64,000 nucleotides of DNA from a phage (GCA_027262695.1 GCA_027262695.1_4722.1); one strand, 5' to 3'; positions 4,540 to 48,544 are shown, counted from the stretch's first letter. Numbers and translations: made by a program. Notes: generated from the letters alone by a model not told the origin.

Positions 4540-5628
4540 ATGAGCGACCTGGCAACAGACAATCGCACAAAAGGGAGTCAGCTAGCTCCAGACAACAACG
4601 TAAGCGTTTTCCGTATCTATGCCTTGGGTACTGTTGCTGCCGACTTTTCCAATAAAAGTCTGGAGGAAGATCCTAACCAAACGCTGGAGGTCTTTCTTGA
4701 TGAGATGATGTCAGGCGCTGATGGGAAAGTTGAAGCGGCGGGAAGCGTTAAAGAAGTCAGTGCAACAGACGCTCAAGGGAACAGTTATACGGCGAAAGCG
4801 GCAACAACAACCAGCGTACAGTGTTACTGGTTACCTTTCGGTAGTAACCGGATGACAGCACCTAACTTGAGGAAAGGTCAGCGTGTGGTGGTCTGGCGTA
4901 CTGCTGATGAAGAACAACTCTATTGGCAGCCCAAAGGAGGGGATAGTGAGCTGATGACCATGGAATCGGTTATCCTCACCGTCAGCGCACGTCCTAGCGC
5001 TAAGAAGGACCGTAAATCGATTTCAACGGAAGACTGCTATTACCTAATGGTTGATACCTTTCTTAAGAAAGCGGTTATCGGTACAAGCGCACAGCTTGGT
5101 GAAGTTACCCAAGTCTACATGGAACTTAATCTGGACGAGGGTTACCTACAGGTTGCGGACAGCGTCCATCAAAATCTGCTGTTACTCCATTTCGTTGAAC
5201 ATATGCTGCGTTATCAAAACCAGGACGACAGCATCATCGACGTGACAAAAAAGAACATCACATTCCAGTGCGAGGATACGCTCAAAGCCATCGCTAAGAA
5301 CGATATCCGAATGAAAGCAAAAAACATTTATACCGAATGTGAGAACTTCGAGCGTACCAGCAAAACAGAAAGCGTTACGAGTCAGAATGTTTCTTTGAAG
5401 TGTGACCGCTACACCGCGCAAGTATCAGGACAAACCACGTTCAAATGTCCTAATACGGTATTCACCGGAGCTGTAAGCTTCACAGGTGAGGACGGAAACA
5501 CGATGACGTTGAATGGGAACTTCGTACATGTTGCGGGCTCTTGGCGTTCACCAACCGGAACAAACGTATACACCCACGATCATGGTGGTGTAGATCGTGG
5601 TAGCGGTCGTACAGACCCGTTCCAATAA
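4540..5628 (+). CDS. hypothetical protein, possible virion protein
   Basis: 362 aa ORF with GGAG-type RBS (gtaGGAGattacagcATG), divergent from SbcC-like gene. Confidence 0.55.
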   Translation: MSDLATDNRTKGSQLAPDNNVSVFRIYALGTVAADFSNKSLEEDPNQTLEVFLDEMMSGADGKVEAAGSVKEVSATDAQGNSYTAKAATTTSVQCYWLPFGSNRMTAPNLRKGQRVVVWRTADEEQLYWQPKGGDSELMTMESVILTVSARPSAKKDRKSISTEDCYYLMVDTFLKKAVIGTSAQLGEVTQVYMELNLDEGYLQVADSVHQNLLLLHFVEHMLRYQNQDDSIIDVTKKNITFQCEDTLKAIAKNDIRMKAKNIYTECENFERTSKTESVTSQNVSLKCDRYTAQVSGQTTFKCPNTVFTGAVSFTGEDGNTMTLNGNFVHVAGSWRSPTGTNVYTHDHGGVDRGSGRTDPFQ

Positions 5629-5650
5629 ACAAAAAAGAAATGCAACACAA

Positions 5651-5684
5651 CCTCCTTCCCCGGCCTGATGGCTAGGGAAGGAGG
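5651..5684. terminator. GC-rich hairpin, CCTCCTTCCC / GGGAAGGAGG stem, at convergent gene ends
   Basis: 10-bp inverted repeat read directly; member of recurrent hairpin family. Confidence 0.5.
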
Positions 5685-5699
5685 ATTATGGTTTATTTA

Positions 5700-6089
5700 T
5701 TAACGGATTGCGTTTTGGATGATTTCTTTTCCGATCGTAATCAAAGCAGGTATCTGTACTGCGGTTGCGCCTTGATGACGAAACGCGGTCGTTAATGCGG
5801 TATCGATGCTCACAGCACGTCCGTGAAGACGATCGAAATAGACTTGAGTGATAGCAGCGGCATACTCTTTTCGCTGTTTCTTGGTTTGGTTTACCATCGT
5901 CGCACTACTACCGACGATGAAATAAGCGATTAAGAAGAATGCGGCTGACCGTGAGCCGGGTAGAAAGCCTTGGCGTTTAGGAAGCATTTCACAATCACGA
6001 ACAGTAATACTGTTCGTGAGCTTTTCCATGTCGACATGGCATAATTTTGCATAGGTGTGAAGATGATGGGTAAAAGTTGAATTTAACAT
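5700..6089 (-). CDS. hypothetical small protein with one hydrophobic segment
   Basis: 129 aa ORF; AAFFLIAYFIVGSSATMV looks like a transmembrane helix. Confidence 0.4.
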   Translation of the reverse strand: MLNSTFTHHLHTYAKLCHVDMEKLTNSITVRDCEMLPKRQGFLPGSRSAAFFLIAYFIVGSSATMVNQTKKQRKEYAAAITQVYFDRLHGRAVSIDTALTTAFRHQGATAVQIPALITIGKEIIQNAIR

Positions 6090-8467: not shown

Positions 8468-8743
8468 TTATACGTCTTTTCTGTGCGCGTAGAACGCCTT
8501 CGTTCCGTTGTTGATCGCCTCAACCACATCCGGGGTTAACACAACGGCGATATCGCTTCGAGATGACGGTGCGTAATACCCTTCACCGTTCTCGGTAATC
8601 AGGCGATAACGGACTAAGCCTATGTTCGGTTCAACGCGTACCACTCTTTCGAGTTTGTACTTGATGATCTTCGTCAGGCCGATAGTCTCTGATGCGTAGA
8701 TGGCTTTATAAACTTTGTTCTTTGCTGTCGTTTTCATCAACAT
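8468..8743 (-). CDS. hypothetical small protein downstream of paralog A
   Basis: Start chosen at ATG 8743 (AAGGA 10 nt upstream); ORF track extends to 8812, overlapping the upstream gene. Confidence 0.4.
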   Translation of the reverse strand: MLMKTTAKNKVYKAIYASETIGLTKIIKYKLERVVRVEPNIGLVRYRLITENGEGYYAPSSRSDIAVVLTPDVVEAINNGTKAFYAHRKDV

Positions 8744-9599
8744 GGTTTCTGTTTTCCTTGGTTTGTTGTGGTCCCAGGTCGGAGATATCCCAACGGATAT
8801 AACCAACATCACGGATTCGCTCGGCTGTTTCTTCGGATTGTGGATTACGACTGATAACCGGTAGCCATTCCCCTTCTCGGGTTATCTTAACTTCGGTGAT
8901 CTGTAAGCTCATGTTCCAACGAACGTCATAAACCAGCGCGTAACCAAGAGGATGAACAAGCCCATCTTGGTTATACATCTTCAAAAGACCTCTTACATCT
9001 TCGCTACGAAGTGATTTCATGGCTGGACGTACGCGTTGAAGTCTCTTTGTGATATCGTATCCCAACTTAATATCCTTCCAACCCGTCATGACGTAAGGAA
9101 CAACGTTGCGGCGACGGAGTTGATGGTTGTGAGTGGTTTCTTCGGCGGTAAGATGTACCCAACCGAGATCGCTGTACGCCACGAACCGCGCTCCTTCTCC
9201 ATCGAGCACTGTGTGCTCATCTAACGCTGCTGCAACACCATGGCCTGCGTAATACGACGGAAGAACGTTCAGCATTTTAATACGGCTTTCTTGACCGGTA
9301 TGGTCAGGGTCGATATGCGCGTAGTAATAATTACGGCTTACCGGACGACCTTCCGCCATACATCCACGGAAGACAGGGTCCTGCATTCCAAGCGGATGGT
9401 AATACGCGAGCTGTTGCTCGTCACCTTCCCCGATGACCAACAAACGATCTTCACGACTTGGTGTGCTAGGATCTTTCACCGTGATGTAGGTAACAATCAC
9501 TTTCAGATTGTCTAAAATGTCCTGTGGAAGTTTCTCTAAATCCCGTGCGTCGTAAATACGATTAACAACAACGTTTGCAATGTGTTTTGGTAAGCTCAT
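8706..9599 (-). CDS. hypothetical protein, tandem paralog A (YYHPxGMQ / DLGWxHL / GYxRWDISDL family)
   Basis: 297 aa; shares YYHPLGMQ, SDLGWVHL, RRNVVPYVM, HPLGY, GYIRWDISDL with the two neighbouring ORFs. Confidence 0.6.
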   Translation of the reverse strand: MSLPKHIANVVVNRIYDARDLEKLPQDILDNLKVIVTYITVKDPSTPSREDRLLVIGEGDEQQLAYYHPLGMQDPVFRGCMAEGRPVSRNYYYAHIDPDHTGQESRIKMLNVLPSYYAGHGVAAALDEHTVLDGEGARFVAYSDLGWVHLTAEETTHNHQLRRRNVVPYVMTGWKDIKLGYDITKRLQRVRPAMKSLRSEDVRGLLKMYNQDGLVHPLGYALVYDVRWNMSLQITEVKITREGEWLPVISRNPQSEETAERIRDVGYIRWDISDLGPQQTKENRNHVDENDSKEQSL

Positions 9600-9679
9600 T
9601 TTAGATCTCTCTTTGTTATCGGTAAAATAAATAACGGCATAAATGGGACATAACTGTCCCCGTGTTAAATATCAACTGT

Positions 9680-10522
9680 TCACGCTTTCAAGTCTGAAAT
9701 ATCCCAACGTACGTAACCTGTACGCTCAATGTCGTCAACCAGTCGCTCGGTTTGATTTTCAACGCCAACGACGGGCACCCAATTTAAACGCCAGCGTCCA
9801 CCGACATTAACCTCAACACGCTGCAGATCTTCATTCCAACAAACCCCATTCGGTCTCAAAAAGCCCATCGGATGGATGTAGTCCTCATCGTAATCTTTCA
9901 ATAGCGCGAGAATATCGCTTCGGCTATAAGTCTTCACGCTTGCTAGATGTACGCTTTGTAGCTTATCACGCAGACCCCAACCGTACTCACTATCACGCCA
10001 TTCAGGCATGACAACCGGCAGTACATTCCGATGACGGATGTATTTTGCCGCTTCAGCAATATCAGCTGGGAGATGTATCCAACCTAAATCGCTGTTAGCG
10101 ACAAAATCAGGACTATCCATTTCATGGATGTAACGATCGTAAAGCGTAGCAGCGAGTCCTTCAGCAAGCACGTTTGTTGGAAGGAGGCAGTTGGCGCTTA
10201 TCTTGAAATCGAATACATCGGCATCAGGATCCACGTATGCGTAAAACCCGCGCGCAAAAGCACCGCCATGCTCTTTGAAGTAGTATTGGAACACAGCGTT
10301 TTGCATTCCGATGGGGTGGTAGTAAGCCAACACACGTTGTTCGCCGTCCGTGATTTCAATGAGCCGATCTTTCGGCTTCGGCCAGGTGATCTTCTCAACA
10401 TCGCAAACGCTGACGATCTTTCGTAGATTCACCTTGATATGTTCCGGGAGATGCCCGATTTCATTTTCATGATAAACACGGGTGATGACGTGATGAATAA
10501 CAGATTGTGGTTTAGCTGTCAT
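9680..10522 (-). CDS. hypothetical protein, tandem paralog B
   Basis: 280 aa; YYHPIGMQ, SDLGWIHL, HRNVLPVVM, HPMGF, GYVRWDISDL. Confidence 0.6.
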   Translation of the reverse strand: MTAKPQSVIHHVITRVYHENEIGHLPEHIKVNLRKIVSVCDVEKITWPKPKDRLIEITDGEQRVLAYYHPIGMQNAVFQYYFKEHGGAFARGFYAYVDPDADVFDFKISANCLLPTNVLAEGLAATLYDRYIHEMDSPDFVANSDLGWIHLPADIAEAAKYIRHRNVLPVVMPEWRDSEYGWGLRDKLQSVHLASVKTYSRSDILALLKDYDEDYIHPMGFLRPNGVCWNEDLQRVEVNVGGRWRLNWVPVVGVENQTERLVDDIERTGYVRWDISDLKA

Positions 10523-10554
10523 TTGACGTCTCCTTTTCGTTTGTTGGTGATGGT

Positions 10555-10854
10555 TTAGGGTTTAGGTTCCGTTTTGTATTGTGCGAGTAATGCGTTGATC
10601 TGCTCCCGTTGTTCTTTTAAGCATGTGGGAAGCTGGTCTTCCCGTACCGTTCCGATTTCCAACGTGATGTACCAACGTTGTTCGGAAGCCTGCCATTGAA
10701 AACTGCTCTGTAACCGAAGGATGTTGGGATCGCGTACCTTGCTTGCGCTGTAGCGATCGAACCAATCCAGATAAGCGGCTTTTCCTTCCTCGTCGGCAAC
10801 GTAACGCTGCACGCTGTTCTTGCCTTTGTTCTCGTATCCCGTGATGCGGATCAT
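10555..10854 (-). CDS. hypothetical small protein coupled to paralog C
   Basis: Start at ATG 10854 forms ATGA overlap with stop of 10851-11627. Confidence 0.4.
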   Translation of the reverse strand: MIRITGYENKGKNSVQRYVADEEGKAAYLDWFDRYSASKVRDPNILRLQSSFQWQASEQRWYITLEIGTVREDQLPTCLKEQREQINALLAQYKTEPKP

Positions 10855-11627
10855 GCGAACGTTTCTCCTGTAACGTGTTGCGGATAGCGTAGCATGGTAA
10901 CATCCCATTGTACGAATCCCTGCTGTTGGAGTTGTTGCATAACCGCTTCAACGTCTTGTCCTGGATGCGCAACCGGCAACCAACGTGTATCCAGCACCTT
11001 CGCTTCAAGGCGGGCTTTGCGCTTGTTCCAACGTACCTCGCTGATCCATGCGAAGCCAAGCGGATGCACCACCTGCGGGTAATGCACGCGCAGCAGGTTC
11101 TTCATCCGGCGAAGGATTGCAAGCCTGGCGTCAAGCGCGTATGGTTTCACCTGGTTAAGCTTGCGGGTGTAATACGTTCCCACGGTTTGGTTCGCCCAAC
11201 CAGGAAGCGCATGATGGGACCCAGCCTGCAATGTATTGTCCCCGTTCGTCTTCAACCAACCGTATTGCCCTGCCGCACGTCCTTTCTCATGTTCAACTTG
11301 TACCAGCTGATCGATGAACGAAGCATCAACGATACCGTGATCCACCTCATCCAACGCATAGCGCACCACCAACCCGCTCGCGCTCATCCGTGCGGGATGC
11401 TGGCTCCGATGCGCGTACCAAACCCTATTAACATGCAGCCGAGAAGGATACGTGTGTGCGCCACGCCAAAACACTTTTCCGAGAACACGTTCTCCACAGT
11501 ACACCATCACCCCTTTGTGATCGATTAGGTAATCCAACACCTTCATGCATTCCGCTTTGATGCTATCCGGTAATGCTAAGTATTCCTCTTCGGTGAACAC
11601 GGTATCAAAAATGATTTCATCGCTCAT
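10851..11627 (-). CDS. hypothetical protein, tandem paralog C (more divergent)
   Basis: 258 aa; HPLGFAWISEVRWN and GFVQWDVTML correspond to motifs in A and B. Confidence 0.55.
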   Translation of the reverse strand: MSDEIIFDTVFTEEEYLALPDSIKAECMKVLDYLIDHKGVMVYCGERVLGKVFWRGAHTYPSRLHVNRVWYAHRSQHPARMSASGLVVRYALDEVDHGIVDASFIDQLVQVEHEKGRAAGQYGWLKTNGDNTLQAGSHHALPGWANQTVGTYYTRKLNQVKPYALDARLAILRRMKNLLRVHYPQVVHPLGFAWISEVRWNKRKARLEAKVLDTRWLPVAHPGQDVEAVMQQLQQQGFVQWDVTMLRYPQHVTGETFA

Positions 11628-11677
11628 GGATAAAGTTCCTTGTTTTCACGTTGTTTGATTAACGTATTGATTTCTGA

Positions 11678-11712
11678 TGATGATAACATCGATATGTTTG
11701 CTGTTATCAAGA
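11678..11712 (-). promoter_or_regulatory. candidate sigma70-like promoter for the minus-strand early gene array
   Basis: On minus strand TTGATA, about 17 nt spacer, then GTTATCAT about 50 nt upstream of the 11627 start; by eye only. Confidence 0.25.
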
Positions 11713-11879
11713 AGGTAATATAGCCGTGAAAGGATTTGTATTACAGAAAGGATATTTGTTTTTAAGAAGGGACGATGGTTATCAGGAAGGAGGTTATCGG
11801 TAGGTGTAGGAGAGGGGATTTCAAGGAAGGTTTAAGAGGATAGTTATGTTGTTTAGTTGAGAGTTTGCTAAAATAGCTT

Positions 11880-12070
11880 TATCGTTATCTTAGTTTATCT
11901 GTGTATTCGTTAGGTATCTTGATTTATCTTCTTAATGATCTTTTCAAAAGTGTTATCATGGTTATCTTAGGTTATGTCTTAATTGTTTTATCTTGGTATG
12001 TTTAAGTTGTTTTAAGTTATCTGTTTATCTATCTTGTTATCTTGTTTAAGTTGTTAATGGCTTATCTTCA
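11880..12070. repeat. iteron-like cluster: at least 9 copies of TTATCT plus two copies of GTTTAAGTTGTT
   Basis: Direct repeats read from sequence inside a roughly 950-bp ORF-poor AT-rich island (11628-12584). Confidence 0.55.
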
Positions 12071-12073
12071 AAA

Positions 12074-12130
12074 CAATGGATAACATGTGTTTACTACGCT
12101 CGTTGAGTTATAACTCAACGGTAACACATG
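12074..12130. repeat. nested palindrome ACATGTGTT...CGTTGAGTTATAACTCAACG...AACACATGT
   Basis: Perfect 20-bp palindrome CGTTGAGTTA/TAACTCAACG flanked by 9-bp outer inverted repeat. Confidence 0.5.
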
Positions 12131-12536
12131 TCATCTGTGCATTACACTACGTTACATGCTTATCAACGTTTTGTGAAGACAAAACGTTCAACTCTAAAAA
12201 ACCATTTGTGATACTCTTCTTCACGTTGTTCATCAGAGTATCTCGTCTATCCTCACTGCGTTCGCATACGACATCACCGTTATACGCTAACGCTACGCTT
12301 ATAGCTTATAACTCTAAGGATAAAAACATAAACTCGCTTCGCTCGTTTAGTTTTTCTTTTTCTTAGAGTTATCATGTTGCTCGTCTCTAAAGGACTTCGC
12401 TCCTCCCCCGTCCCCCGAAGGGGCCGAGGTCGTGGAAATTTTACTTTCCAAATACATTTACAACGTCTGTAAACTTTTACCGACACATACCTAATCTTAT
12501 ATTTAAAATTAGAAAAAGAGAAAATACGAACATAAC

Positions 12537-12566
12537 CCTCCTCCAACCCGGAAGGGAAGGAGGAGG
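12537..12566. terminator. hairpin CCTCCTCC-AA-CCC-GGAA-GGG-AA-GGAGGAGG (canonical family member)
   Basis: Read directly; immediately downstream of stop of 12585-13478. Confidence 0.55.
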
Positions 12567-12584
12567 TGATAACAGTCTATTTAA

Positions 12585-13478
12585 TTAATCGGAAGTGTTA
12601 TAACCGAATACTGCTTTACCGTAGGTGTGAGTACCATCACTGAGTGACAATACTAATACGTGGTTATACGCATCGTTAACACCCTTGTCGGTAGAATCGG
12701 TGGTAACACCGTTGTAGACAAAGGTAGCTGATTGCAGATTGGTTTTCAGTTCATTGATGATATCATCACTTACACCAGTCTGCTCTTTAATCAGAGTAGT
12801 CAGGTTACCTGCTAAGCTTGCGTCGAGATTTACTTCGTTGCCAGTAATAGCTTGTAAACCTGAAGCGTAAGTACTGAAGTCTAACGGATAGGTTAACAGA
12901 CGTGCTGACGTTTTGGTACCATTGCCTTCATCAACGTAGGTTAAGTTACCCAGGTTGGTAACCTTGATAATGTTAGACAGATCCAGCGTTGTGTTATAAA
13001 CTTTAACTTGAACAGAACCATACCAAGCCAACGAATCTTCTTTGGCTTCCAGGGTAACGGTTTGGATACCTGACTGATCAAAGGTAACGGGATTAGATAA
13101 CGTTTCAGCTTTGATGTCTTTTGTTTTATCCAGGAACTTCTCGCCGGAAGGCGTAACCATACCGTAGCGTTGAGCTACGAGGTCGACCACGTCACCGATG
13201 GTGGTGTTTGCTTCAACACTAACGCGCACCGCGATCTTCTGGAACCATTTAGCCAGATCCAGACGATGATAGGTGACATCGCGGGTATTGAAGTACGGTG
13301 TACCATCACCCGGACTGAGTGTTAATGTTGCTGCACTATCAGAATCGCTTTTGGATTTAAGAACGTATTTGAGATCAGTGTATTTGAAACTGGCTCCCGT
13401 ATCGGCGTTAAGCTGGTTGATCTCATCAACGATAAGTTGCCACGGTGTTTTCAAAGTAAGTGATACTCGACTTGACAT
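12585..13478 (-). CDS. putative tail/baseplate-associated structural protein, member of 4-copy paralog family
   Basis: 297 aa; shares Y-x-R-[IL]-D-L and LAW-[YT]-GSV motifs with 24541-25446, 26363-27214, 27225-28160. Confidence 0.55.
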   Translation of the reverse strand: MSSRVSLTLKTPWQLIVDEINQLNADTGASFKYTDLKYVLKSKSDSDSAATLTLSPGDGTPYFNTRDVTYHRLDLAKWFQKIAVRVSVEANTTIGDVVDLVAQRYGMVTPSGEKFLDKTKDIKAETLSNPVTFDQSGIQTVTLEAKEDSLAWYGSVQVKVYNTTLDLSNIIKVTNLGNLTYVDEGNGTKTSARLLTYPLDFSTYASGLQAITGNEVNLDASLAGNLTTLIKEQTGVSDDIINELKTNLQSATFVYNGVTTDSTDKGVNDAYNHVLVLSLSDGTHTYGKAVFGYNTSD

Positions 13479-13620
13479 TTTTTTACCTCGATGGTTGTTA
13501 CATCACTCTCAAAAGATGTAAATGTTTACAGAAAATAATATATTTTATATTTAATGTAAATGATATGGAGAACGACTCCGAATCTCCTTTTCGACCATCA
13601 AAATCAGAGGACACACAGTC
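13479..13620. promoter_or_regulatory. AT-rich divergent intergenic region, likely divergent promoters
   Basis: 142 bp between divergently oriented starts; contains TATATTTTATATTTAATG. Confidence 0.3.
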
Positions 13621-14163
13621 ATGGCCTTAGACTTTAACAAAGCAGCGAAATCCCTTCTGCTCGATCTTATCAACACCAAAGCAACTCGCACACTGACCGA
13701 AGAAGAACTGCAGTTCGGTACTCCGGGGGCATCTTCCGAACATTCTAAGAACACCGTTATTCAGCTGGATGCTGCGGATGAAGCAGAAAACCTGCAGGGT
13801 ACTCAGCAGTTCTACTACGATCGTCTGGCTCTATCTGACGTTTTCGCTGATGTAACCGGCGATGTTACTTTCGAACTGCCGCACGGTACTGAAAGCATCC
13901 AGGCTTCCGAGCTGGTAAGCAAGCTGGTCACCAAATTCGGCCTGGCTTCCCTGACCGGTGAAATCAAAGAAGAAACCTTCCAGCTGTCTGCAGGTACTGT
14001 TGGTCAGGTAACTCTGAGCGCGATCGAGAACGGTCTGGTATATACCGGCACTCTGCAGGTTGCTCTGACCTATGCAGCAGCACCGAAAGACGAACTGGCA
14101 ACCGTTCTGGCGAATAACGTAGCTGAAGGTTTCGTGAAACCTGAAGTAGCTGTCGTTGGCTAA
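13621..14163 (+). CDS. abundant small virion protein (decoration or tube-like; function not resolved)
   Basis: 180 aa ORF with strongly host-optimal codon choice (CTG, CGT, GGT, GAA, AAA) unlike neighbours. Confidence 0.55.
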   Translation: MALDFNKAAKSLLLDLINTKATRTLTEEELQFGTPGASSEHSKNTVIQLDAADEAENLQGTQQFYYDRLALSDVFADVTGDVTFELPHGTESIQASELVSKLVTKFGLASLTGEIKEETFQLSAGTVGQVTLSAIENGLVYTGTLQVALTYAAAPKDELATVLANNVAEGFVKPEVAVVG

Positions 14164-14362
14164 TAAGCACGTAGAGCAATAGTATGGGTTTTGTACAGCT
14201 CGGCTATTGCTCTTCTACAATTTGGTTGTAACAATCTGCGTGGTTGCACGCTTATCTTTCTCATTGAACGCTTCGTATGATGCGTGGTGTTGAAAGGGTT
14301 GTGGATCTCCTCAAGCGGCCAGGGACCCAGACCAACCTGAATAAACACAAACACATGTTAAG

Positions 14363-14394
14363 CCCCTCCTCATCCGTTATTGGGTGGGGAGGGG
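14363..14394. terminator. hairpin CCCCTCCTCATCC / GGGTGGGGAGGGG
   Basis: 13-bp stem with two G-U pairs at convergent ends of 13621-14163 and 14458-15093. Confidence 0.45.
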
Positions 14395-14457
14395 TCTTAT
14401 ACGTCTTTATGCGTTCCGTTCGTTCTGGAGCGTTTTAGAACGGTTTACGACAGGGTT

Positions 14458-15093
14458 TTATTCAGCACTGAAACCGTTCAAACGGATAGCTTCGTAACGT
14501 TTACGTTCACGACGTTTACGCGCCTGCCAACCGTAAATGAACTTCTCGTCTTTCTCACGACGTTCAGCTAATTCGATGTAATACATGCTCTGCATATCCA
14601 GCATCGCGTCGATAAGGTAATCTTTACCTTGCTCGCCACGTTTTGCGATATAAGCGTCCAACGCACCTAAGGTTTTAGGTCCCATCCCACCATCAGCGTC
14701 AATATCTTTCCAGTAAGTTTGACGGTTGTTCATGACGTTGAGGTAACGCTGGAGGTTCTTAACGGCAACGGATTTGCCTGCATTGATACCCAGATCAAAG
14801 AGACGGTCAGCTAAGAACACGGAACGCTTCATGACGTCATCAAGCTTCATCTTATCCCAGAAGTGGGTTTTGTAGATGAAGAACGCCATGTCGTAGGTCA
14901 GATTGCGCATATTACCATTCCAACCGAATTTCGTTTTCAGCGTGGTTTTGTATTGATCGGCGAGCGCTTTCGTAATTCCCATCATGGTTTCATTACCGCT
15001 GTCATCTGGGTCGTTGACGTATCCCGCCTCGATGTTGGTTTTATCACGAATGATGAATTCGCAGGTAAAATCTTTTTCAGTAATCTTGGTCAT
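14458..15093 (-). CDS. endolysin, GH108-type N-acetylmuramidase with C-terminal peptidoglycan-binding region
   Basis: N-terminal EAGYVNDPDDSGNETMMGIT matches GH108 signature EGGYxxDPxDxGGxTxxGIT. Confidence 0.7.
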   Translation of the reverse strand: MTKITEKDFTCEFIIRDKTNIEAGYVNDPDDSGNETMMGITKALADQYKTTLKTKFGWNGNMRNLTYDMAFFIYKTHFWDKMKLDDVMKRSVFLADRLFDLGINAGKSVAVKNLQRYLNVMNNRQTYWKDIDADGGMGPKTLGALDAYIAKRGEQGKDYLIDAMLDMQSMYYIELAERREKDEKFIYGWQARKRRERKRYEAIRLNGFSAE

Positions 15094-15195
15094 TAGAACT
15101 CCTCGTTTAGATAACGATTTAGAGGAACAGGAAGGCCCTAGAACGCGATAAACGATTTAAACCAGGCAAACCCTAGATTAAACTTTTCGAAGCGT

Positions 15196-15209
15196 TAGAA
15201 CGCGTTCTA
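15196..15209. promoter_or_regulatory. palindrome TAGAACGCGTTCTA upstream of endolysin, with additional CTAGAACGCG half-site at 15136-15145
   Basis: Read directly; located 100-130 bp upstream of the endolysin start. Confidence 0.35.
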
Positions 15210-15219
15210 GAGCGTGAAA

Positions 15220-17268
15220 TTAAATACCCTTGGTTCCTTTCACGCGGTGCGCAATTTCTTCAACCATTGCACGCAAGGCACGAAGCTGTTGGTCGTGTTC
15301 GTACCAACCGCCTAACAGAACCCCGCTATACACCATGGTGTCCAGACTTAACAGTCCTTTATCTGATACGTTGATCATTTCAGGGAACTGTTCTTGTACA
15401 CGTTGTGCGATAACACCGATCTTCTCAACATCAGGATCGTAGTCGTGACGGAAACGGGCAAGCCCGGTGTATGCCATTTCACGTAAACGATCACTGAAAG
15501 ATTCTGGATGGTCTTTCAGATAACGGATGTCGTGTTTACTACGCTCATCTGAACGGATGTATGCGTTAGGAACATCGATGTTGCTGTTGAAGTACAACGC
15601 GCTACCACCACCTGCAGAGTTACCCCAATAGAAGCTAGTAAGAATGCTACCGCCATTACCTGTAACATGCACGGTGCTTCCCACCCTCGTTCCACCGCTA
15701 CCATCAACGAAGACCAGTTTGTTTCCGCTGTAAGAACCCCAGAACAGACGACTATCGATGATGTTGGTTGCGGCGAGGCGGGCGTTACGTGGTGTAGAAT
15801 AGACGGTGTTGATATCTTGCTGCGCCTGTGCGTCAGAAGCGATACCGTAGTTCTGCACATTACCTAAACCTACTTGGGCTTTTGTAACAGCGTGAGGGTT
15901 GTCTCGACGGTTAGCGTGATTGTTAACCAGATCGCCCGCCAATTTCTGAATTGCCCAGTTGGTAGACTGTGGCGTCATGTAACGGTTAGTTGCAGAACCA
16001 CCTTGCGCCTCAGCTTGGTTAGCGGTTGGGTAGTTCTCAACGCTTCCTAACCCTACTTGTGCCTTAGACACTTGGTGCGGGTTATTCTTGTCGGCAATAT
16101 GTGCATTAAGCGGAACTAACGCGAAGGTCTCGATGGACGCTTTGGTTGTGTTCGGTGCCATTAATCGGTTAGCTGCAACCCCAGCACGTGCTTCATCCTC
16201 CGAAGCCATCGGATAGTCTTGCACATTACCTAATCCTACCTGCGCTTTGGTCACCTTGTGCGGGTTGTTGTAATCGGTTTTATGTGCGTTAAGCGGAATC
16301 AATGCGAATTGTTCAATCGCTGCAACGGTACGTAGCGGCGTCATGAATCGGTTATTCGCTGTTCCGTCCTTCGCCTCGCTATCCGAAGCGGTCGGGAAGT
16401 TATCAACGTTCCCAAGGTTAACCTGTGCTTTGGTAACGCTATGTGGGTTATCTTTACGATTAGCGTGAGCGTCGACTAGATCCCCACCCAGTTTAGCAAT
16501 CGCCCATCCAACCGTTTGTGCGGTCATGTATCGGTCAGGTGCTGTACCGGCTTCTGCCTCCGCCTTGTTTGCGGTAGGATAGTTCTGTACATTACCTAAA
16601 CCTACTTGGGCTTTTGTGGTTTCGTGCGGGTTATCGGTACGGTTAGCATGCGCGTAATGCAGATCGGTAAGGTCTTTATCCGCCGCTTGCATGTCTTTAC
16701 GTAGCTGATCGATTGCCGCCCAGAGACGGTTATCGGACGCAGCATCACCGATAAGTATTGCGGCTTTCAGCGAATAGATCGCTAAGCAAAGATGTTCGGT
16801 ACCGTAGATAGCACTAACATGGTGGATGTGTGGTTCAGGCGGATAAAGTTCCGGTTTGTTCTTGATGTCGTCCCAGTTGATCGGACGATCGTCAAGTTTG
16901 AGTTCTTCGATAGCCTGATATAACGCGTCAATAAGACTTACGTAAACACCACCGATGATACGATAGTCGTTAATTAACGTCCCCTCGATATCATCGTTGA
17001 TGATGGCGATCGCCGCACAGATTTCTTTACCTGCGTAAAGCGTCGCATCCTGATACAAGAAGATGGGTTTATAATCCACGCCTCGTACCAGTGTCTTACC
17101 GGTAAGCTTTTCAGTGATGACCAGACTTTCGGTAAAGAACGGTCCGCCATCAAGGGCGTAACATTTATTCTCGGTTCGTGGAACGGTATGCTCTTCACCA
17201 ACGATGTGGTTGCTGGCGAGTGTACCGGTCCAGTCCTCGGGGTACTTCAGGGTAATTGGTGTCGACAT
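15220..17268 (-). CDS. tail fibre protein with five NPH-x-VTKAQVGLGNV repeats and C-terminal S74-type intramolecular chaperone domain
   Basis: Repeats DNPHETTKAQVGLGNVQNY etc.; C-terminal IRSDERSKHDIRYL matches S-D-x-R-x-K auto-cleavage motif. Confidence 0.7.
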   Translation of the reverse strand: MSTPITLKYPEDWTGTLASNHIVGEEHTVPRTENKCYALDGGPFFTESLVITEKLTGKTLVRGVDYKPIFLYQDATLYAGKEICAAIAIINDDIEGTLINDYRIIGGVYVSLIDALYQAIEELKLDDRPINWDDIKNKPELYPPEPHIHHVSAIYGTEHLCLAIYSLKAAILIGDAASDNRLWAAIDQLRKDMQAADKDLTDLHYAHANRTDNPHETTKAQVGLGNVQNYPTANKAEAEAGTAPDRYMTAQTVGWAIAKLGGDLVDAHANRKDNPHSVTKAQVNLGNVDNFPTASDSEAKDGTANNRFMTPLRTVAAIEQFALIPLNAHKTDYNNPHKVTKAQVGLGNVQDYPMASEDEARAGVAANRLMAPNTTKASIETFALVPLNAHIADKNNPHQVSKAQVGLGSVENYPTANQAEAQGGSATNRYMTPQSTNWAIQKLAGDLVNNHANRRDNPHAVTKAQVGLGNVQNYGIASDAQAQQDINTVYSTPRNARLAATNIIDSRLFWGSYSGNKLVFVDGSGGTRVGSTVHVTGNGGSILTSFYWGNSAGGGSALYFNSNIDVPNAYIRSDERSKHDIRYLKDHPESFSDRLREMAYTGLARFRHDYDPDVEKIGVIAQRVQEQFPEMINVSDKGLLSLDTMVYSGVLLGGWYEHDQQLRALRAMVEEIAHRVKGTKGI

Positions 17269-17281
17269 AACCTGGAGGTCC

Positions 17282-19879
17282 TTATAACGTGACTGTACCT
17301 AATTTGGTTGTCTTATTGAGATTAATGACAGAGATCTGGGTATCGCTGGTCGTAATCGTTCCGATATTAACGCGCTGTCCTTTATCATCTTCTTGCTTGT
17401 AGATGGTTAACTCCAGTTCTAACTGGTCGCCATTAGGAACAACGGAAACGTACCATGTTTTATTACCTGGTGAACTATTATAGTCTTTTAGGTTATAATG
17501 GCCTTTAGGTAAGGTCATGGCCTTACCGGCAAACAAACATGAAATGTCCTCGTTGATATAAACGTCGAAACCGGAAGAAGCGATGACTGTTGAGGCCATT
17601 ATTCGAGACGCGACGATACCACGATTATAGTCGTCGATTGTGGTACCTATGACATTGAATACTTGCCCCCCGTTACCCATAATGGTCGATTCGCTAGTGT
17701 TTACGTAGCCGATACCCCAAGTCGGATGAATGTTCCAGCGGTACCCACTGTTTTGTAAATATGTATACATGTCCTCATAGGCCGCATTCACCCAACTACC
17801 ATCACTTTTTCGTCCAGCCCTAAATTGGAATGTGTTGCTATTTCCAGATGTCCCTCGGCCAAGCGGGACATGTCCCGCTACTAACCAACCATCCGTACTT
17901 TGCATATATGCGAACGAACCGTACGCTCTGTTATCAGCCCAAATATTCACGGTATCAACACGCTCAACGTAGGCGATTACCTTTTGTACGCCAGTTATAG
18001 CGATTGAACCCTTGCGTGCCGACAAATTAACTTCTGCGATTACAACACCCATTTTACGCTGGCTGCCACTAAACCCCAATACAACCATTAAACACGGTGC
18101 GTTTGTTGCTTCAGGAGGGATTGTTATCGATTGTTTCCAGTCGGTGATTCCGTTGAGTTTTGTTCCAGTGTATGCGTTCCAGACGGTTTGTCCAGCCGAT
18201 TTCAGATTCTGTTCAGAAATAGAAATGCTATCGCCCTCAGGGATTAACGTGTCGTAATTAAGACCGATGTTACTGGATAGACGATTGTCATTTAAGTAAG
18301 ATCCACTGAGTGTGACGTTATTGTTACGATATATTGTCAAGAATGGCGCAGCCAGAGCGTCTAATACCGTAAAGTTACTTGATGGCATGAAACCATAGAC
18401 ATCGATACCATTACCGTGGTAATGGTAGTTTGTCCAACTACCTTGATAACTTACGGTACGCCCATCGTAGTGACCTTGTTCACCGCCACTGCTAGACAAC
18501 GTGTATATCTTGGTTGCTGATAGAAATGCGAGATACCCATGAGCCGCCAAAGCTCCAACAACCCTGTCTTTTATCTTTAACCAATCTGAAGTATATAACG
18601 TACTGTCGGGATTCATTTTGGCTATTTCATCGTAAGCTGTGCCTGCGAAGTTTCCGATAGTGTACGTACGTATATCCGGCTGTCCGTTATTGTCGTTCTG
18701 TACAGCAATTACTTGCCCAGAATCATTGATATCGATATTACCGATACAGTTGTGAGGCCCCCACACCCAATATCCATCTTTATAATTGGATTCTCCTTGT
18801 GTGAATGTTGATGGTCCTCGCCACGCGATGCCGTTCGATTCGGCGTAGTAGGTCGCTTGCCCCGATCCGGGATTCATGGCGTATTTGTTATTGGTTGGGT
18901 CAAAATCGATGTAAAAATGATGCATTCCTTGACGTTGATGATTGTTCTGATCATTTGTCCACCACGATGAACCGACCAGAATTCGCGCTTTACCATTTTT
19001 TACAGTGGACCATAAACGTATTGCAGCGCGCCAGATGATTTGACCGATCCCGTTAGACGGGAAACTATTCGCACTTATACGGTTACAGACTATGAGTTCG
19101 CTGCTATTGTTTACTTGAGTCCCTTCAATTGTGACACCGTTTATGTTAGTGATCAGTGTTGCCGATACACTACCCCCTGTAGGGGCGATAGAGGAACGTT
19201 GAACGGTGTAAATTTTTAGTGATAATTTATAGCCGTCCCTAACAGCAATCCCAATGTAAATAGTCCCGTTAATTTCCCAACAACAAACATCGGGCATCGT
19301 TTCTTTGAAATCGGATAAAGCACCATCGATATACATTGCAACGTGTTTACTGGCATCGAATGTACCATCCGTTAACGCGATGAACATTTTGGCGTTATTA
19401 CCGTTGATATCAGCCGCTAATCCGAGTAGTATGTTGTTCTGATGACAGTAGATGGCTTTAGGTGCTAGATCCAACATAGCCGGTTGGTACTGTCGGCTTG
19501 TCGGTATTACGCTAGTAACTGCACCATTTTGATCCGTTTTACAAATAACGTAATATACGCCATGTATGATGCTGTTTGTCGCCGACCTTAGTAGGACAAT
19601 CGTCCCGTCAGATTCACGACATATACCGTAATGACGATAGTCGGTGATTAAGCCGATAGCACCATCAGCAGAGCCTTCAATTGCCAGAGGAAAATAACTT
19701 TGGTCCCCAACCTGTTCGATATCGGTTGCGCCAATATCGATGTATTTTTCCATCTCAGTGTTGAACTCAGCGGTACTGTAGGCACCGAGATCGCTCGCCT
19801 TTAGTCCCGTTGGGTTGTCGCGACTGGCGATACGCGTAGTAACGCTACTCACCAGTTCGCTGAACTTTTTCATTGCCAT
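17282..19879 (-). CDS. putative tail fibre / tailspike protein
   Basis: 865 aa, Gly/Ser/Thr/Asn-rich; N-terminus RDNPTGLKASDLG resembles the fibre repeat; in tail-fibre operon. Confidence 0.5.
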   Translation of the reverse strand: MAMKKFSELVSSVTTRIASRDNPTGLKASDLGAYSTAEFNTEMEKYIDIGATDIEQVGDQSYFPLAIEGSADGAIGLITDYRHYGICRESDGTIVLLRSATNSIIHGVYYVICKTDQNGAVTSVIPTSRQYQPAMLDLAPKAIYCHQNNILLGLAADINGNNAKMFIALTDGTFDASKHVAMYIDGALSDFKETMPDVCCWEINGTIYIGIAVRDGYKLSLKIYTVQRSSIAPTGGSVSATLITNINGVTIEGTQVNNSSELIVCNRISANSFPSNGIGQIIWRAAIRLWSTVKNGKARILVGSSWWTNDQNNHQRQGMHHFYIDFDPTNNKYAMNPGSGQATYYAESNGIAWRGPSTFTQGESNYKDGYWVWGPHNCIGNIDINDSGQVIAVQNDNNGQPDIRTYTIGNFAGTAYDEIAKMNPDSTLYTSDWLKIKDRVVGALAAHGYLAFLSATKIYTLSSSGGEQGHYDGRTVSYQGSWTNYHYHGNGIDVYGFMPSSNFTVLDALAAPFLTIYRNNNVTLSGSYLNDNRLSSNIGLNYDTLIPEGDSISISEQNLKSAGQTVWNAYTGTKLNGITDWKQSITIPPEATNAPCLMVVLGFSGSQRKMGVVIAEVNLSARKGSIAITGVQKVIAYVERVDTVNIWADNRAYGSFAYMQSTDGWLVAGHVPLGRGTSGNSNTFQFRAGRKSDGSWVNAAYEDMYTYLQNSGYRWNIHPTWGIGYVNTSESTIMGNGGQVFNVIGTTIDDYNRGIVASRIMASTVIASSGFDVYINEDISCLFAGKAMTLPKGHYNLKDYNSSPGNKTWYVSVVPNGDQLELELTIYKQEDDKGQRVNIGTITTSDTQISVINLNKTTKLGTVTL

Positions 19880-19891
19880 TATTCACCTCGA

Positions 19892-20377
19892 TTAAATAGG
19901 CGAGTCGGGTAGCTGACCATCATCGATCTCGATGGTGGCCACCTTACGTGTTGCAGCAAGATGTGATGTACCCTGGATTTTGTTCCAGGTGCCGATACGC
20001 ATGGCGTTTTTGTAGCTGCTATCGCTATCGTTCAGCGTGTAAACAAAACCGCTATCGGTTACGGCAAGATAGATCCAGCCTACAGACTCACTGATGCCTG
20101 ACACGTCCAAAGTTGCTGCTGGCACCGTCCCTACCACCGTGTTGTATTCCGCTGTACCTTGACCAATGCTGATCCGTCCGTTGCTGTAACTGGCTGCTGG
20201 AAGCGTTTTATTTCGACTGAAGAAAAGAAACGGAAGGTAACGCTGGGTAACAAGCGGTGCAAGTTTAGGAGCCACTTCGGTCTTAACGTAGACATCTGTT
20301 TGTGCTGGCGTTACCTCGTGAGGGTTCTTTTGGGTAAGATACGTCCCCCATTCAGAAAGCAGTGTTGATAGCTTCAT
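19892..20377 (-). CDS. small tail-fibre-associated protein
   Basis: 161 aa; N-terminus QKNPHEVTPAQTDV is a single copy of the fibre repeat. Confidence 0.45.
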   Translation of the reverse strand: MKLSTLLSEWGTYLTQKNPHEVTPAQTDVYVKTEVAPKLAPLVTQRYLPFLFFSRNKTLPAASYSNGRISIGQGTAEYNTVVGTVPAATLDVSGISESVGWIYLAVTDSGFVYTLNDSDSSYKNAMRIGTWNKIQGTSHLAATRKVATIEIDDGQLPDSPI

Positions 20378-20381
20378 GCGG

Positions 20382-20897
20382 TTACCCCATGTAACGTTTT
20401 TGGCCGAGGATGAAGACTTTGTTAAATACCACCGAAGTGATTCCTGTTGCGTTACAGCTCACCTGCCCGACGCGAATTGCTGTTGACGTATCGACCCCAG
20501 CACTACTCTGCCAGATCCAATCGATCGATCCGTCTTTCTGACGAATGAAAAGATAACCGGTTTTGTTCGCCCAGTCGGAAGTAAGTTTTTTGATGTCTAG
20601 CGTTCCCTTCGCCAGAATATAGTCGGTACCGGCGATCATGACGGGTATTTCAGGATACGAGATTACCGTACCGCTGGCAGTAACGTTGCTGATGCGTTCG
20701 CTACGAATATCGGTACAGTCACCGAAATACGCTACGGGGAGTATCCCCTTAGGGAGCTTTTTGCCGATTCTCGTATCGATCGTGTTTTTATCGGGTGCGT
20801 CGATTTGCGCTGCGGTGACTTGGTTAGGGTTATCCTTCCTTGCGTACCATGTCGTCATGCGAGCACCCAATTCACTCATTTTTGTGCCCATTTTCAC
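20382..20897 (-). CDS. small tail-fibre-associated protein
   Basis: 171 aa; N-terminus RKDNPNQVTAAQIDA is a single copy of the fibre repeat. Confidence 0.45.
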   Translation of the reverse strand: MKMGTKMSELGARMTTWYARKDNPNQVTAAQIDAPDKNTIDTRIGKKLPKGILPVAYFGDCTDIRSERISNVTASGTVISYPEIPVMIAGTDYILAKGTLDIKKLTSDWANKTGYLFIRQKDGSIDWIWQSSAGVDTSTAIRVGQVSCNATGITSVVFNKVFILGQKRYMG

Positions 20898-46260: not shown

Positions 46261-46335
46261 CGTATTTACCTTTTTATGTTAGGTGGGTTGCGGATAGAAG
46301 AATCAATGCATAGTCTGATTTAAGTTTGTTAAGAC

Positions 46336-47169: not shown

Positions 47170-47254
47170 GTTAAGCTCCTTGATTACGGTAAGGATGATT
47201 TCGGTTTTGTGATGATGGTAGGACCACTTTGTTTAGGATCCTACCAGTACGGGA

Positions 47255-48028: not shown

Positions 48029-48055
48029 GATAGTATCCTCGATTAGTAAGGTTGG

Positions 48056-48460: not shown

Positions 48461-48544
48461 TGATTATAGCTCCAGGTTATTATCACTAAGGTAATATAGT
48501 CGTGAAATAAACTGGAGTAATAGAAATAATAAGACGGCATAAGA

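Follow-up and report, generated by a model that had tools for sequence, protein, structure and literature searches.

The nucleus-forming phage considered here uses RNA polymerases of its own within a nucleus bounded by protein. Long imperfect hairpins that lie between cistrons, just past a stop codon, are exemplified by the RNase III hairpins of T7 and by the sib site of lambda. Among cell wall hydrolases, the Salmonella muramidases TtsA and Sen1395 are chromosomally encoded and serve toxin secretion rather than phage lysis.

How nucleus-forming phages lyse their hosts was resolved only in 2025-26, for phiKZ alone, in which the cassette comprises gp141, gp141.1, gp142, gp143, and gp144 (Manohar et al., Sci Rep 2026, PMC12894885). 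It sits between gp139, the counterpart of Goslar gp032 (4e-45), and the tail-fibre genes. The phiKZ endolysin gp144 is also a structural component of the virion, a neck wedge present in 6 copies (PMC13250141).

The window (the whole stretch of 64,000 nucleotides of phage DNA analysed here) is collinear at its muramidase locus with the giant E. coli phage Goslar, Escherichia phage vB_EcoM_Goslar, with ~91% DNA identity, and the sequence places the phage among the Goslar-like members of the Chimalliviridae, the nucleus-forming jumbo phages. The explanation favoured here, and a fairly probable one as a whole, is that a soluble muramidase is encoded in the fibre module, that its holin is encoded elsewhere, that the palindrome upstream of the gene is an arm of a conserved boundary hairpin, and that a repeat downstream of it is due to chance.

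The muramidase gene and its neighbours

The muramidase gene (14458-15093, minus strand) encodes 211 amino acids and is the ortholog of Goslar gp024 (YP_009820709.1, annotated "endolysin"), with which its product shares 90.5% amino-acid identity at equal length. Two Pfam domains are recognized, GH108 (PF05838; 68.7 bits, cut-off 21.2; residues 21-106) and PG_binding_3 (PF09374; 66.9 bits, cut-off 24.6; residues 110-192), and the protein matches PHROG 315 "endolysin" (6e-40). The nearest solved structures, those of Sen1395 (6V3Z, 2e-39) and TtsA (6V40, 2e-34), align over residues 20-191. The catalytic glutamate, E22 of an E[AG]GY motif that reads EAGY here, is invariant in 17 orthologs and aligns with the EGGY of both structures. 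The C-terminus carries a polybasic tail, RKRRERKRYEAI.LNGFS.E, that is invariant across 17 orthologs and missing from the SPN3US, Asesino, and PaBG homologs. The N-terminus is polar, the peak 19-residue hydropathy is 0.78, and a hydropathy scan finds no signal peptide, signal-anchor, or membrane segment. The predicted product belongs to the TtsA/Sen1395 type of muramidases, with GH108 and PG_binding_3 domains, and is soluble and cytoplasmic. The label "endolysin" is reasonable, and the ortholog is also found in purified virions.

An earlier reading, made from the sequence only, had described a stand-alone GH108 endolysin gene between structural genes. Both parts of this description hold. The two Pfam domains establish the enzyme, which has no membrane-protein neighbours, and it is flanked on one side by a Peptidase_S74 tail-fibre gene and on the other by two DUF7941 virion-protein genes. 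The tail-fibre-like gene (15220-17268, minus strand), assigned by Pfam, is the ortholog of Goslar gp025 and is itself preceded, on its own strand, by a closely spaced set of four genes (23102 down to 17282). The nearer DUF7941 gene (13621-14163, plus strand; 180 amino acids; Pfam 74.6 bits) is convergent with the muramidase gene and orthologous to Goslar gp023; the second, also assigned by Pfam, lies at 12585-13478 on the minus strand. Goslar gp023 is the second most abundant virion protein by mass spectrometry, with ~2140 copies per virion (bioRxiv 10.64898/2026.04.21.720040).

The muramidase gene is the last of a one-strand run of tail-fibre genes and is followed by a strong terminator hairpin. 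Spacing further upstream in the run is 4-51 nt, and the gap before the muramidase gene is always 126 nt, in the window as in the related loci. Gene order and family assignments place the gene in a fibre/DUF7941 module, likewise in Goslar, SPN3US, and Asesino.

Virion association of the muramidase

Published mass spectrometry of CsCl-purified Goslar virions detected gp024 with 10 peptides and 40.8% coverage, and the tabulated abundance is ~76 copies per virion (estimate 51-120). According to the same virion data, this is ~13 times the value for the soluble dTMP kinase (about 5.7) and near that of the tail fibre gp029. The GH108 protein could thus be mainly a virion-associated wall hydrolase, acting in entry or as a structural part, with lysis left to other genes such as gp098 together with gp100/gp101. 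This is a genuine possibility, albeit the less probable course. A virion-associated role would explain a gene in a structural operon without a holin, and the position of the gene suits co-transcription with the tail-fibre genes. The alternative lysis proteins gp098, gp100, and gp101 are not among the proteins in the portion of the Goslar virion table that was covered; gp098 starts with a signal peptide that looks cleavable, and gp101 is built like a class II holin or pinholin. The neck-wedge position of phiKZ gp144 provides a structural precedent (PMC13250141).

However, the Goslar virion preparation also held chimallin (126 copies), PhuZ (171), and ChmC (78), so co-purification at a level like that of gp024 does happen. 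In addition, gp024 is missing from the 28-protein cryoEM model of Goslar, which lacks the whisker ring of phiKZ, and it has no structural domain, fused or docked, but enzyme and wall-binding domains only. Goslar already possesses a tail lysozyme, gp204, at ~5 copies in the virion table. Finally, cells infected with phiKZ are protected from lysis when gp144 is knocked down, which means that a virion-located enzyme can still be an endolysin (PMC12571901). By analogy, a dual role as lysis enzyme and virion component is possible for the muramidase, and in this form a virion function can be accommodated within the favoured explanation, that of a soluble muramidase with a holin encoded elsewhere.

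A conserved hairpin upstream of the gene

Folding and conservation delimit a 79-nt hairpin on the gene strand (15135-15213, minus strand), the 5′ end of which lies 7 nt past the tail-fibre stop codon. The outer stem comprises 13 bp (15201-15213 with 15135-15147; 11 bp in Goslar) and the inner stems 4, 6, and 5 bp. In Goslar the element occupies 18377-18455. The outer arms form an inverted repeat of 13 nt, 53 nt apart and 92% complementary. The sense-strand fold has a dG of -33.8 (z -6.4) and accounts for 66% of the ensemble, compared with -20.1 (z -3.4) for the antisense strand.

The consensus of the relatives gives a matching fold, and 97.5% of cells are paired across 17 distinct sequences versus 33-51% when the partners are slid. 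All of the variable paired sites (7/7) change on one side only, each to a G·U pair that forms on the sense RNA alone (binomial p = 0.008). The L146 lineage, for one, has CGTG in place of CGCG in the 3′ arm, yielding a G·U pair. Columns vary less often where they are paired (11/74) than where they are unpaired (18/52; p = 0.009), a contrast that is not significant for the hairpin alone (p = 0.23). No pair changes on both sides, among sequences that are all at least about 90% alike and from which the structure itself was derived. Folding and comparison together support the structure of the predicted element and its conservation in the sense transcript.

The hairpin is single-copy in the window and in Goslar by covariance model, overlaps no Rfam match at E up to 1, and is not found in SPN3US or Asesino (best score 15 bits, E = 0.69). 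Its region is also the sole 80-nt stretch of the window with three copies of CTAG, a tetranucleotide that occurs 37 times in the window against an expectation of 247, a 6.7-fold depletion.

We read the hairpin as an intercistronic RNA element that follows the tail-fibre operon and precedes the gene for the muramidase, and infer its exact role. It would mark the point at which the tail-fibre message gives way to that of the muramidase, and may do so by halting part of the read-through, as a processing site of RNase III type, or as a stem that stabilises an RNA end. Each of these roles, whether partial stop, processing, or stabilisation, would set the amount of muramidase mRNA made or kept. A classical intrinsic terminator was considered and rejected: the stem is followed by CUUCCUGUUCC, which has no U run, and the terminator scan does not list the hairpin.

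Between the hairpin and the start codon lies a 41-nt leader (15094-15134, minus strand) with the Shine-Dalgarno sequence GAGGAG at 15099-15104. A weak hairpin in the leader may pair CCUC with GAGG, at a dG of -6.1 that is not significant (z -0.8). In one relative (L013), a 1.2-kb insertion that carries a 369-amino-acid gene on the opposite strand falls inside the leader and parts the hairpin from the muramidase gene, so adjacency to the gene is not strictly needed.

The 126-nt gap contains none of the early or late promoter motifs of Goslar type (TATATTAC; hairpin + TTTATGC), which were derived in this analysis from the Goslar sequence, and it may hold a promoter of an unrecognised type. One candidate is the hairpin itself, as a variant of the Goslar-type terminator-promoter unit (TTTATC for TTTATG) with a weak promoter of its own within the element. 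In Goslar gaps, TTTATGC(C/T)G often comes immediately after a hairpin, and the inner stem here ends in CGTT followed by TATCGCG. Upstream of phiKZ gp144, which has its own transcription start (PMC12676376), the sequence likewise runs from a hairpin into ...TATG.... However, every hairpin-linked example found in Goslar retains the G of TATG, which is a C here in 18/18 sequences, and the stems are not polypurine/polypyrimidine, unlike those of the other units. A promoter of this kind is unlikely.

As an intercistronic RNA element, the hairpin contains the sequences to which the sequence-only reading had drawn attention, a palindrome and a half-site at which lysis timing was suggested to be controlled. 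The 14-nt palindrome TAGAACGCGTTCTA (15196-15209) is exact in the window at 14/14 positions, the half-site CTAGAACGCG (15138-15147) is exact as well, and the inverted repeat is beyond chance. The real pairing differs, however, and is that of the 13-nt arms 53 nt apart. The left half of the palindrome (plus strand) falls in an internal loop of the hairpin and the right half in the 5′ arm of the outer stem, the 3′ arm of which (15135-15147) includes the half-site. One half of the palindrome reads GTTGTA in 9/18 distinct relatives, and the palindrome is imperfect in Goslar too (GTTGTA). The site equivalent to window position 15198, at which the 18 distinct sequences divide evenly between C (9) and G (9), is an unpaired loop position; the polymorphism that breaks the palindrome lies within the loop, outside the hairpin stems. 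We take the palindrome to be part of an arm of a putative RNA hairpin, not a DNA operator.

An operator would require a dimeric regulator that binds the palindrome and half-sites and times transcription of the muramidase gene. A perfect 14-nt palindrome does share one conserved 126-nt gap with a third copy of CGCGTTCTA 57 nt away, and no recognised promoter type explains expression. Nevertheless, this model is very unlikely. The half-site is GTTGTA in 9/18 relatives, but the long-range arms are invariant or changed by wobble only; arm substitutions still pair in the sense RNA, as G·U and in no other way, so the dyad symmetry of the DNA would break. The sense fold is far more stable than the antisense fold, and the "related" site downstream is not conserved. 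The element as a whole occurs once in the window and once in Goslar, and its 9-mer has no copies in other gaps, which argues against a regulon: the exact 9-mer occurs nowhere else in the window, and the two extra copies of CGCGTTCTA in Goslar are both within coding sequence. The nucleus-forming jumbo phage family is not known to have a repressor-type regulator of its RNA polymerases. The suggested control of lysis timing at this site is therefore not upheld, the palindrome being broken in 9/18 sequences and single-copy and its arms changing by wobble only.

The sequence-only reading had also proposed a GTTCT(A/G)GAGCG motif shared by both flanks of the gene. With one mismatch allowed, this pattern has 3 matches in the window against 1.67 expected, and TAGAACGCG has 17 against 16.95. 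These counts do not confirm a shared motif, and the downstream copy is unique to the window. Overall, the earlier observation of this locus is confirmed in part and its interpretation supported in part.

The downstream gap

Between the convergent muramidase and DUF7941 genes lies a strong, G+C-rich, conserved hairpin, GCCCCTCC...GGGGAGGGG (14360-14397). It is among the three most stable 80-nt folds of the window (-40.5), and its Goslar counterpart is an annotated terminator (-14.71). This hairpin probably ends the muramidase transcript.

The downstream repeat that had been described as related to the upstream one is an imperfect inverted repeat (14416-14443). Its 6-bp arms (14416-14421 and 14438-14443) are present in the window, but it is not conserved and shares no motif family with the upstream site: the GTTCT arm occurs in this window only, and the 17 other distinct sequences have TCCTA, CCCTA, or TCATA. 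It is best taken as a chance resemblance.

A nearly invariant non-coding core (14171-14353) lies between the DUF7941 gene and the muramidase gene, with 96% invariant columns in 4 genomes versus 76% for the muramidase gene. It contains a 64-amino-acid ORF that is not a gene, since a CAA codon is a TAA stop in the L146 lineage (18 distinct sequences compared), and the exact product of this ORF has no entry in the protein collection. The whole 294-nt downstream gap folds with z values of -4.8 and -4.1 on the two strands. Another nearly invariant non-coding island is present at 12219-12468.

Holin and spanin partners

Hydropathy scans of the window and of Goslar find no membrane ORF adjoining the muramidase gene. 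The nearest small ORF with even one weak hydrophobic segment is 8.4 kb away (5700-6089). The overlapping ORFs of at least 30 amino acids listed around the gene include no hydrophobic or lipobox ORF as judged by eye, and the ORFs examined at 5.7-11.6 kb have no lipobox. As for spanins, the gp027- and gp028-like ORFs both bear tail-fibre motifs, and neither contains a membrane segment.

The same arrangement is found among the relatives. In 29 further Goslar-like loci, for which genes were called by other, independent pipelines, no gene is called in either gap flanking the muramidase gene. The 12.5-kb loci of SPN3US and Asesino have no holin-like neighbour of the GH108 gene, only a lipoprotein gene ~1.5 kb away on the opposite strand. 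The claim that no holin or spanin lies beside the gene is thus borne out within ~8 kb here, as it is in Goslar, the 29 relatives, SPN3US, and Asesino. A phmmer search of all ORFs of the window and Goslar, which could miss very distant relatives, gives no match to phiKZ gp141, gp141.1, or gp142 at E up to 10.

The suggestion that the holin may lie elsewhere is supported by this locus without a membrane ORF and by Goslar candidates ~93 kb from gp024, outside the window. Goslar gp101 (63 amino acids) has two membrane segments and a basic tail, as a class II holin or pinholin would; gp100 has four membrane segments by eye; both are holin candidates by membrane topology, with no family match. gp098 is a predicted secreted, SleB-like hydrolase, and further candidates are gp085 and gp002-gp004. 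The muramidase, which has no export signal, would depend on a holin from another part of the genome to open a lesion in the membrane, and would reach the wall through that lesion.

That the muramidase instead crosses or disturbs the membrane by itself through its polybasic C-terminal tail is most improbable: although 17 orthologs share an unchanged tail (QARKRRERKRYEAI.LNGFS.E) that the SPN3US, Asesino, and PaBG homologs do not have, and no holin gene is adjacent, the tail is neither amphipathic (hydrophobic moment 0.15) nor hydrophobic, Goslar carries holin-like genes, and the phiKZ endolysin binds membranes in vitro, yet a holin proved to be required and present (PMC12894885).

Comparison with known systems

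The locus is mostly ordinary, and the hairpin is one small new detail. The ortholog was already annotated, its neighbour-free position is visible in the Goslar record, and the basic picture is unchanged. The hairpin offers a small, testable case of a possible post-transcriptional signal in nucleus-forming phages, and gp100 and gp101, with gp098, gp085, and gp002-gp004, are concrete lysis candidates in Goslar.

The closest counterpart is the gp024 locus of Goslar, which has the same neighbours, gaps of 126 and roughly 295 nt, and the hairpin. The genes differ in that their DNA identity is only 85.7% and that a loop near the active site varies (DSGNETMM versus DSGKCTNH). SPN3US_0156 and Asesino gp171 share 49-50% amino-acid identity with the muramidase and likewise follow DUF7941 fibre genes. 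However, neither the polybasic tail nor the 79-nt hairpin is present there. TtsA and Sen1395 (PDB 6V40, 6V3Z) have the same two-domain build of GH108 and PG_binding_3 and keep the motif glutamate. In contrast to these, the muramidase of the window adds a 19-residue N-terminal stretch and the polybasic C-terminal tail.

The upstream hairpin resembles those of T7 and the sib site of lambda in that it comprises ~28 bp in all, has internal loops, is intercistronic, and is stable on the sense strand only. It bears no sequence relation to them.

In phiKZ, as here, the hydrolase gene lies in a peripheral-baseplate/tail-fibre module beside a small DUF7941-like gene (gp143, 177 amino acids), a likeness scored at 18.3 bits, below the cut-off of 27, with no direct phmmer match between gp143 and the neighbour in the window. 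Both wall enzymes are soluble and both are virion-linked. The differences are that phiKZ has a full lysis cassette there, that the catalytic domains are non-homologous (transglycosylase versus GH108), and that relatives of the i-spanin, o-spanin, and class III holin are not found in the window or in Goslar. Moreover, the DUF7941 gene is convergent in the window phage and co-directional in phiKZ.

A broader reading of these likenesses, tentative and rather unlikely as a whole, is that across nucleus-forming jumbo phages the "endolysin" slot of the module generally holds a dual-use enzyme, both packaged and lytic. Unrelated catalytic domains would have been recruited to one slot beside the DUF7941 gene, with phiKZ packaging 6 copies of gp144 and Goslar perhaps gp024 in the tens. 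In the Goslar lineage, the slot would have lost its holin and spanin genes, the lineage-specific 79-nt hairpin would set the amount of enzyme post-transcriptionally, and the islands at 14171-14353 and 12219-12468 would be additional RNA elements of this module. More firmly, the Goslar and SPN3US groups use a different wall hydrolase from that of phiKZ, and at this locus the hydrolase gene stayed in the fibre module, whereas its membrane partners did not.

The Muramidase Gene and Its Phage

The ORF at 14458-15093(-) encodes a 211-aa protein that scores well over the Pfam cut-offs for GH108 and PG_binding_3 and matches PHROG 315 ('endolysin'). Among solved structures, the closest are 6V3Z and 6V40, muramidases of the TtsA type, and the catalytic glutamate is unchanged in 17 orthologs. 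The protein is the ortholog of gp024 of Escherichia phage vB_EcoM_Goslar (90.5% amino-acid identity), which is labelled 'endolysin' in the Goslar record. Goslar, a nucleus-forming jumbo phage (Chimalliviridae), is the sole match to window 13500-15300 in the phage collection, with 90.8% identity, and its 6.0-65.2 kb region is collinear with the whole window apart from a few insertions and divergent stretches. The base composition of the gene gives no sign of foreign origin; it is an ordinary ortholog of an already annotated muramidase.

The 90% cluster of the protein has 175 members, so many Goslar-like genomes can be compared. Contigs of 235-248 kb in public assemblies that carry the labels E. 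coli O157 and Salmonella Montevideo encode an identical protein, and a Salmonella Panama assembly carries a 99% identical variant. These occurrences suggest that Goslar-like phage genomes were sequenced along with the bacterial isolates.

Parts of the window depart from Goslar. A stretch of ~2.2 kb (46319-48480), harboring ORFs at 46336-47169, 47255-48028, and 48056-48460, has no counterpart at the collinear position. Three tandem paralogs on the minus strand (8706-9599, 9680-10522, and 10851-11627), with the common motifs HP(L/M)G...W(N)...(R/Q)WD(I/V), stand where Goslar has the single gene gp021, and a counterpart of 8760-10530 is absent from Goslar.

A Probable Conserved RNA Hairpin in the Upstream Gap

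A 126-nt gap separates the muramidase gene from the tail-fibre gene at 15220-17268(-). The 14-nt palindrome (15196-15209) and the half-site (15138-15147) described in the sequence-only reading are both present there. That reading assigned them to a GTTCT(A/G)GAGCG family flanking the gene, with a related repeat downstream, and raised two possibilities: a holin encoded elsewhere, or control of lysis timing at this operator-like site. Counts of the shared family are at chance level, as are those of a genome-wide GTTCTAGAGCG / TAGAACGCG motif, and k-mer enrichment in intergenic regions brings up other words. The downstream copy is confined to this window, its arm differing in the 17 other distinct sequences. 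The base that completes the palindrome is C in 9 and G in 9 of the 18 distinct sequences and sits in the internal loop of a hairpin. The operator reading does not hold; the palindrome is better explained by a conserved RNA hairpin on the sense strand.

This 79-nt hairpin (15135-15213) is closed by pairing of 15201-15213 with 15135-15147 on the gene strand. The sense strand folds with −33.8 kcal/mol (z −6.4), and the opposite strand with −20.1 kcal/mol (z −3.4). Conservation was assessed over 33 loci, drawn from IMG/VR, a single metagenome contig, and contigs encoding members of the protein cluster; these loci yield 18 distinct sequences of the gap, each exactly 126 nt long. Paired cells make up 97.5% of the stems. 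Seven paired sites vary, on one side each, and in all seven the change turns the sense-strand pair into G·U. An A·C pair, expected in half of the cases without strand-specific constraint, does not occur (p = 0.008). Variable columns are likewise fewer among paired (11 of 74) than unpaired (18 of 52) positions of the gap (p = 0.009). Because two-sided changes are absent from these 18 distinct sequences, which are close to each other, the pattern is suggestive of a conserved RNA structure rather than proof of one.

With a covariance model, the hairpin is detected once in each genome and not at all in the SPN3US, Asesino, PaBG, or phiKZ loci, and Rfam has no match to it. A 16-mer scan of metagenomes employed too short a pattern, returning one real relative among more than 120 matching stretches. 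A separate hairpin sequestering the Shine-Dalgarno sequence was also considered; its fold is no better than that of shuffled sequence (z −0.8), and the claim was therefore dropped.

In one relative (IMGVR_UViG_3300045988_173921, 4880-5989), the 79-nt hairpin is separated from the ribosome-binding site of the muramidase gene by an inserted 369-aa ORF with an Stc1 domain, which runs on the opposite strand and carries a hairpin of its own. This ORF resembles a mobile insertion of the endonuclease type. CTAG is strongly avoided across the window (37 copies vs 247 expected from base composition, a 6.7-fold depletion), and the hairpin region of the upstream gap is the only 80-nt stretch of the window with three copies.

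Promoters and Operon Structure

Enrichment of k-mers upstream of Goslar genes yields two motifs, TTTCACGGCTATATTAC and TTTATGC(C/T)G preceded by a hairpin, which we take to be akin to the early and late promoters of phiKZ, respectively. The former recurs at ~11715-11732(-) of the window and upstream of Goslar gp004, gp105, gp159, gp182, and gp246, and probably serves the virion RNA polymerase as its early promoter. The latter, a recurrent unit with a polypurine/polypyrimidine hairpin, is probably a late promoter with a preceding terminator. Neither motif is found in the 126-nt gap; a canonical Goslar late promoter was rejected there, as TATC stands in place of the TATG of the late motif.

Upstream of the muramidase gene, five genes on the same strand are spaced 4-51 nt apart, and a strong hairpin lies downstream of it. 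On the simplest reading, the muramidase gene would close the tail-fibre operon as its last cistron, and the 79-nt hairpin would be a boundary element that may terminate, be cleaved, or stabilise an RNA end.

Conserved Non-Coding Regions

The 294-nt gap between the muramidase gene and its convergent neighbor is conserved above the level of either gene. Across four genomes, its core (14171-14353) has 96% invariant columns, vs 76% in the muramidase gene, and the core is nearly invariant over the 18 distinct sequences. The gap folds well on both strands and holds the terminator hairpins of both genes. The sole candidate there for an overlooked small gene, a 64-aa ORF at 14160-14354(-), has no membrane segment, is absent from the protein collection, and is interrupted by a stop codon in one lineage, and for this last reason it is not a membrane gene missed beside the muramidase. 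A 31-aa ATG ORF (14261-14356(-)) was also set aside, its start codon not being conserved.

A second island is found at 12219-12468, inside the 957-nt gap 11628-12584. Four Goslar-like genomes agree in 99% of its columns, and no other stretch in 12.6 kb is as well conserved. The island is preceded on the minus strand by a late-promoter-like unit consisting of a hairpin (~12535-12567) and TTATG (12531-12535). Its fold (z −4.0) includes a C(UUCG)G loop, and it is a candidate small RNA. It matches neither Rfam families nor tRNAs and has no relatives outside Goslar. No similarity between the two islands was found, and relatives of both are absent from other phage records. The same 957-nt gap harbors an A+T-rich stretch (11880-12070, G+C ~0.32) with many AGATAAC-like repeats.

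Lysis Partners

The claim that the muramidase gene lacks a membrane neighbor stands: no hydrophobic ORF adjoins it, and the nearest small ORF with even one weak hydrophobic segment lies 8.4 kb away. The gp027- and gp028-like ORFs (19892-20377 and 20382-20897) were considered as holin or spanin and rejected, as both lack a membrane segment and carry tail-fibre motifs; notes in the Goslar record liken their counterparts, gp028 included, to a 'membrane protein'. The absence of lysis partners beside the gene is real and typical of relatives. In SPN3US and Asesino, the GH108 gene likewise comes after DUF7941 fibre genes and has no holin-like neighbor in the 12.5-kb loci covered.

The holin may be encoded outside the window, where a possible second lysis cluster lies at 110508-112126 of Goslar (NC_048170). 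It comprises gp098, a SleB-like hydrolase that carries a signal peptide (...PFSQA/SV); gp100, with 123 aa and four membrane segments as judged by eye; and gp101, with 63 aa, two membrane segments, and a basic C-terminal tail. The secreted proteins gp103 and gp104 are encoded nearby. Further candidates are gp085, gp094, gp002-gp004, and the lipoprotein gp088. The membrane candidates match no family in Pfam or PHROGs.

Virion Association of gp024

According to the Goslar structure preprint (bioRxiv 10.64898/2026.04.21.720040), purified virions contain gp024 (10 peptides, 40.8% coverage) at ~51-120 copies, a level similar to that of the tail fibre gp029 and more than 10-fold that of dTMP kinase, taken as an example of a soluble enzyme. 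For the tail lysozyme gp204 the figure is ~5 copies, and the covered portion of the mass-spectrometry table has no entry for gp098, gp100, or gp101. The authors report that nuclear-shell and PhuZ assemblies co-purified with the virions, and gp024 is not included in the atomic model. The phiKZ protein gp144 forms a structural wedge of the neck, present 6 times in each virion (PMC13250141), but knocking it down nevertheless protects cells from lysis (PMC12571901). Given this precedent and the detection of gp024 in virions, a dual role in virion and lysis is plausible but unproven for gp024.

Comparison with the phiKZ Lysis Cassette

The recently defined phiKZ lysis cassette consists of the i-spanin gp141, the o-spanin gp141.1, the class III holin gp142, the regulator gp143, and the endolysin gp144 (PMC12894885). 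No relatives of gp141, gp141.1, gp142, or gp144 occur among the Goslar or window ORFs. A DUF7941 protein is encoded next to the muramidase gene in the window (13621-14163(+)); phiKZ gp143, encoded at 10693-11226 of the phiKZ locus, matches DUF7941 only weakly. Both gp142 and gp143 are labelled 'virion structural protein' in the phiKZ record. The published roles are in tension, as gp143 is described as a cytoplasmic lysis regulator (PMC12894885), whereas DUF7941 is a virion fibre protein in the Goslar structure preprint (bioRxiv 10.64898/2026.04.21.720040). The phiKZ cassette lies directly after gp139 and gp140, the only proteins of the compared set with relatives in the window and Goslar, and ahead of the tail-fibre genes. 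Goslar gp032 is the counterpart of phiKZ gp139; the hydrolase therefore resides in a module of the same kind in the two phages.
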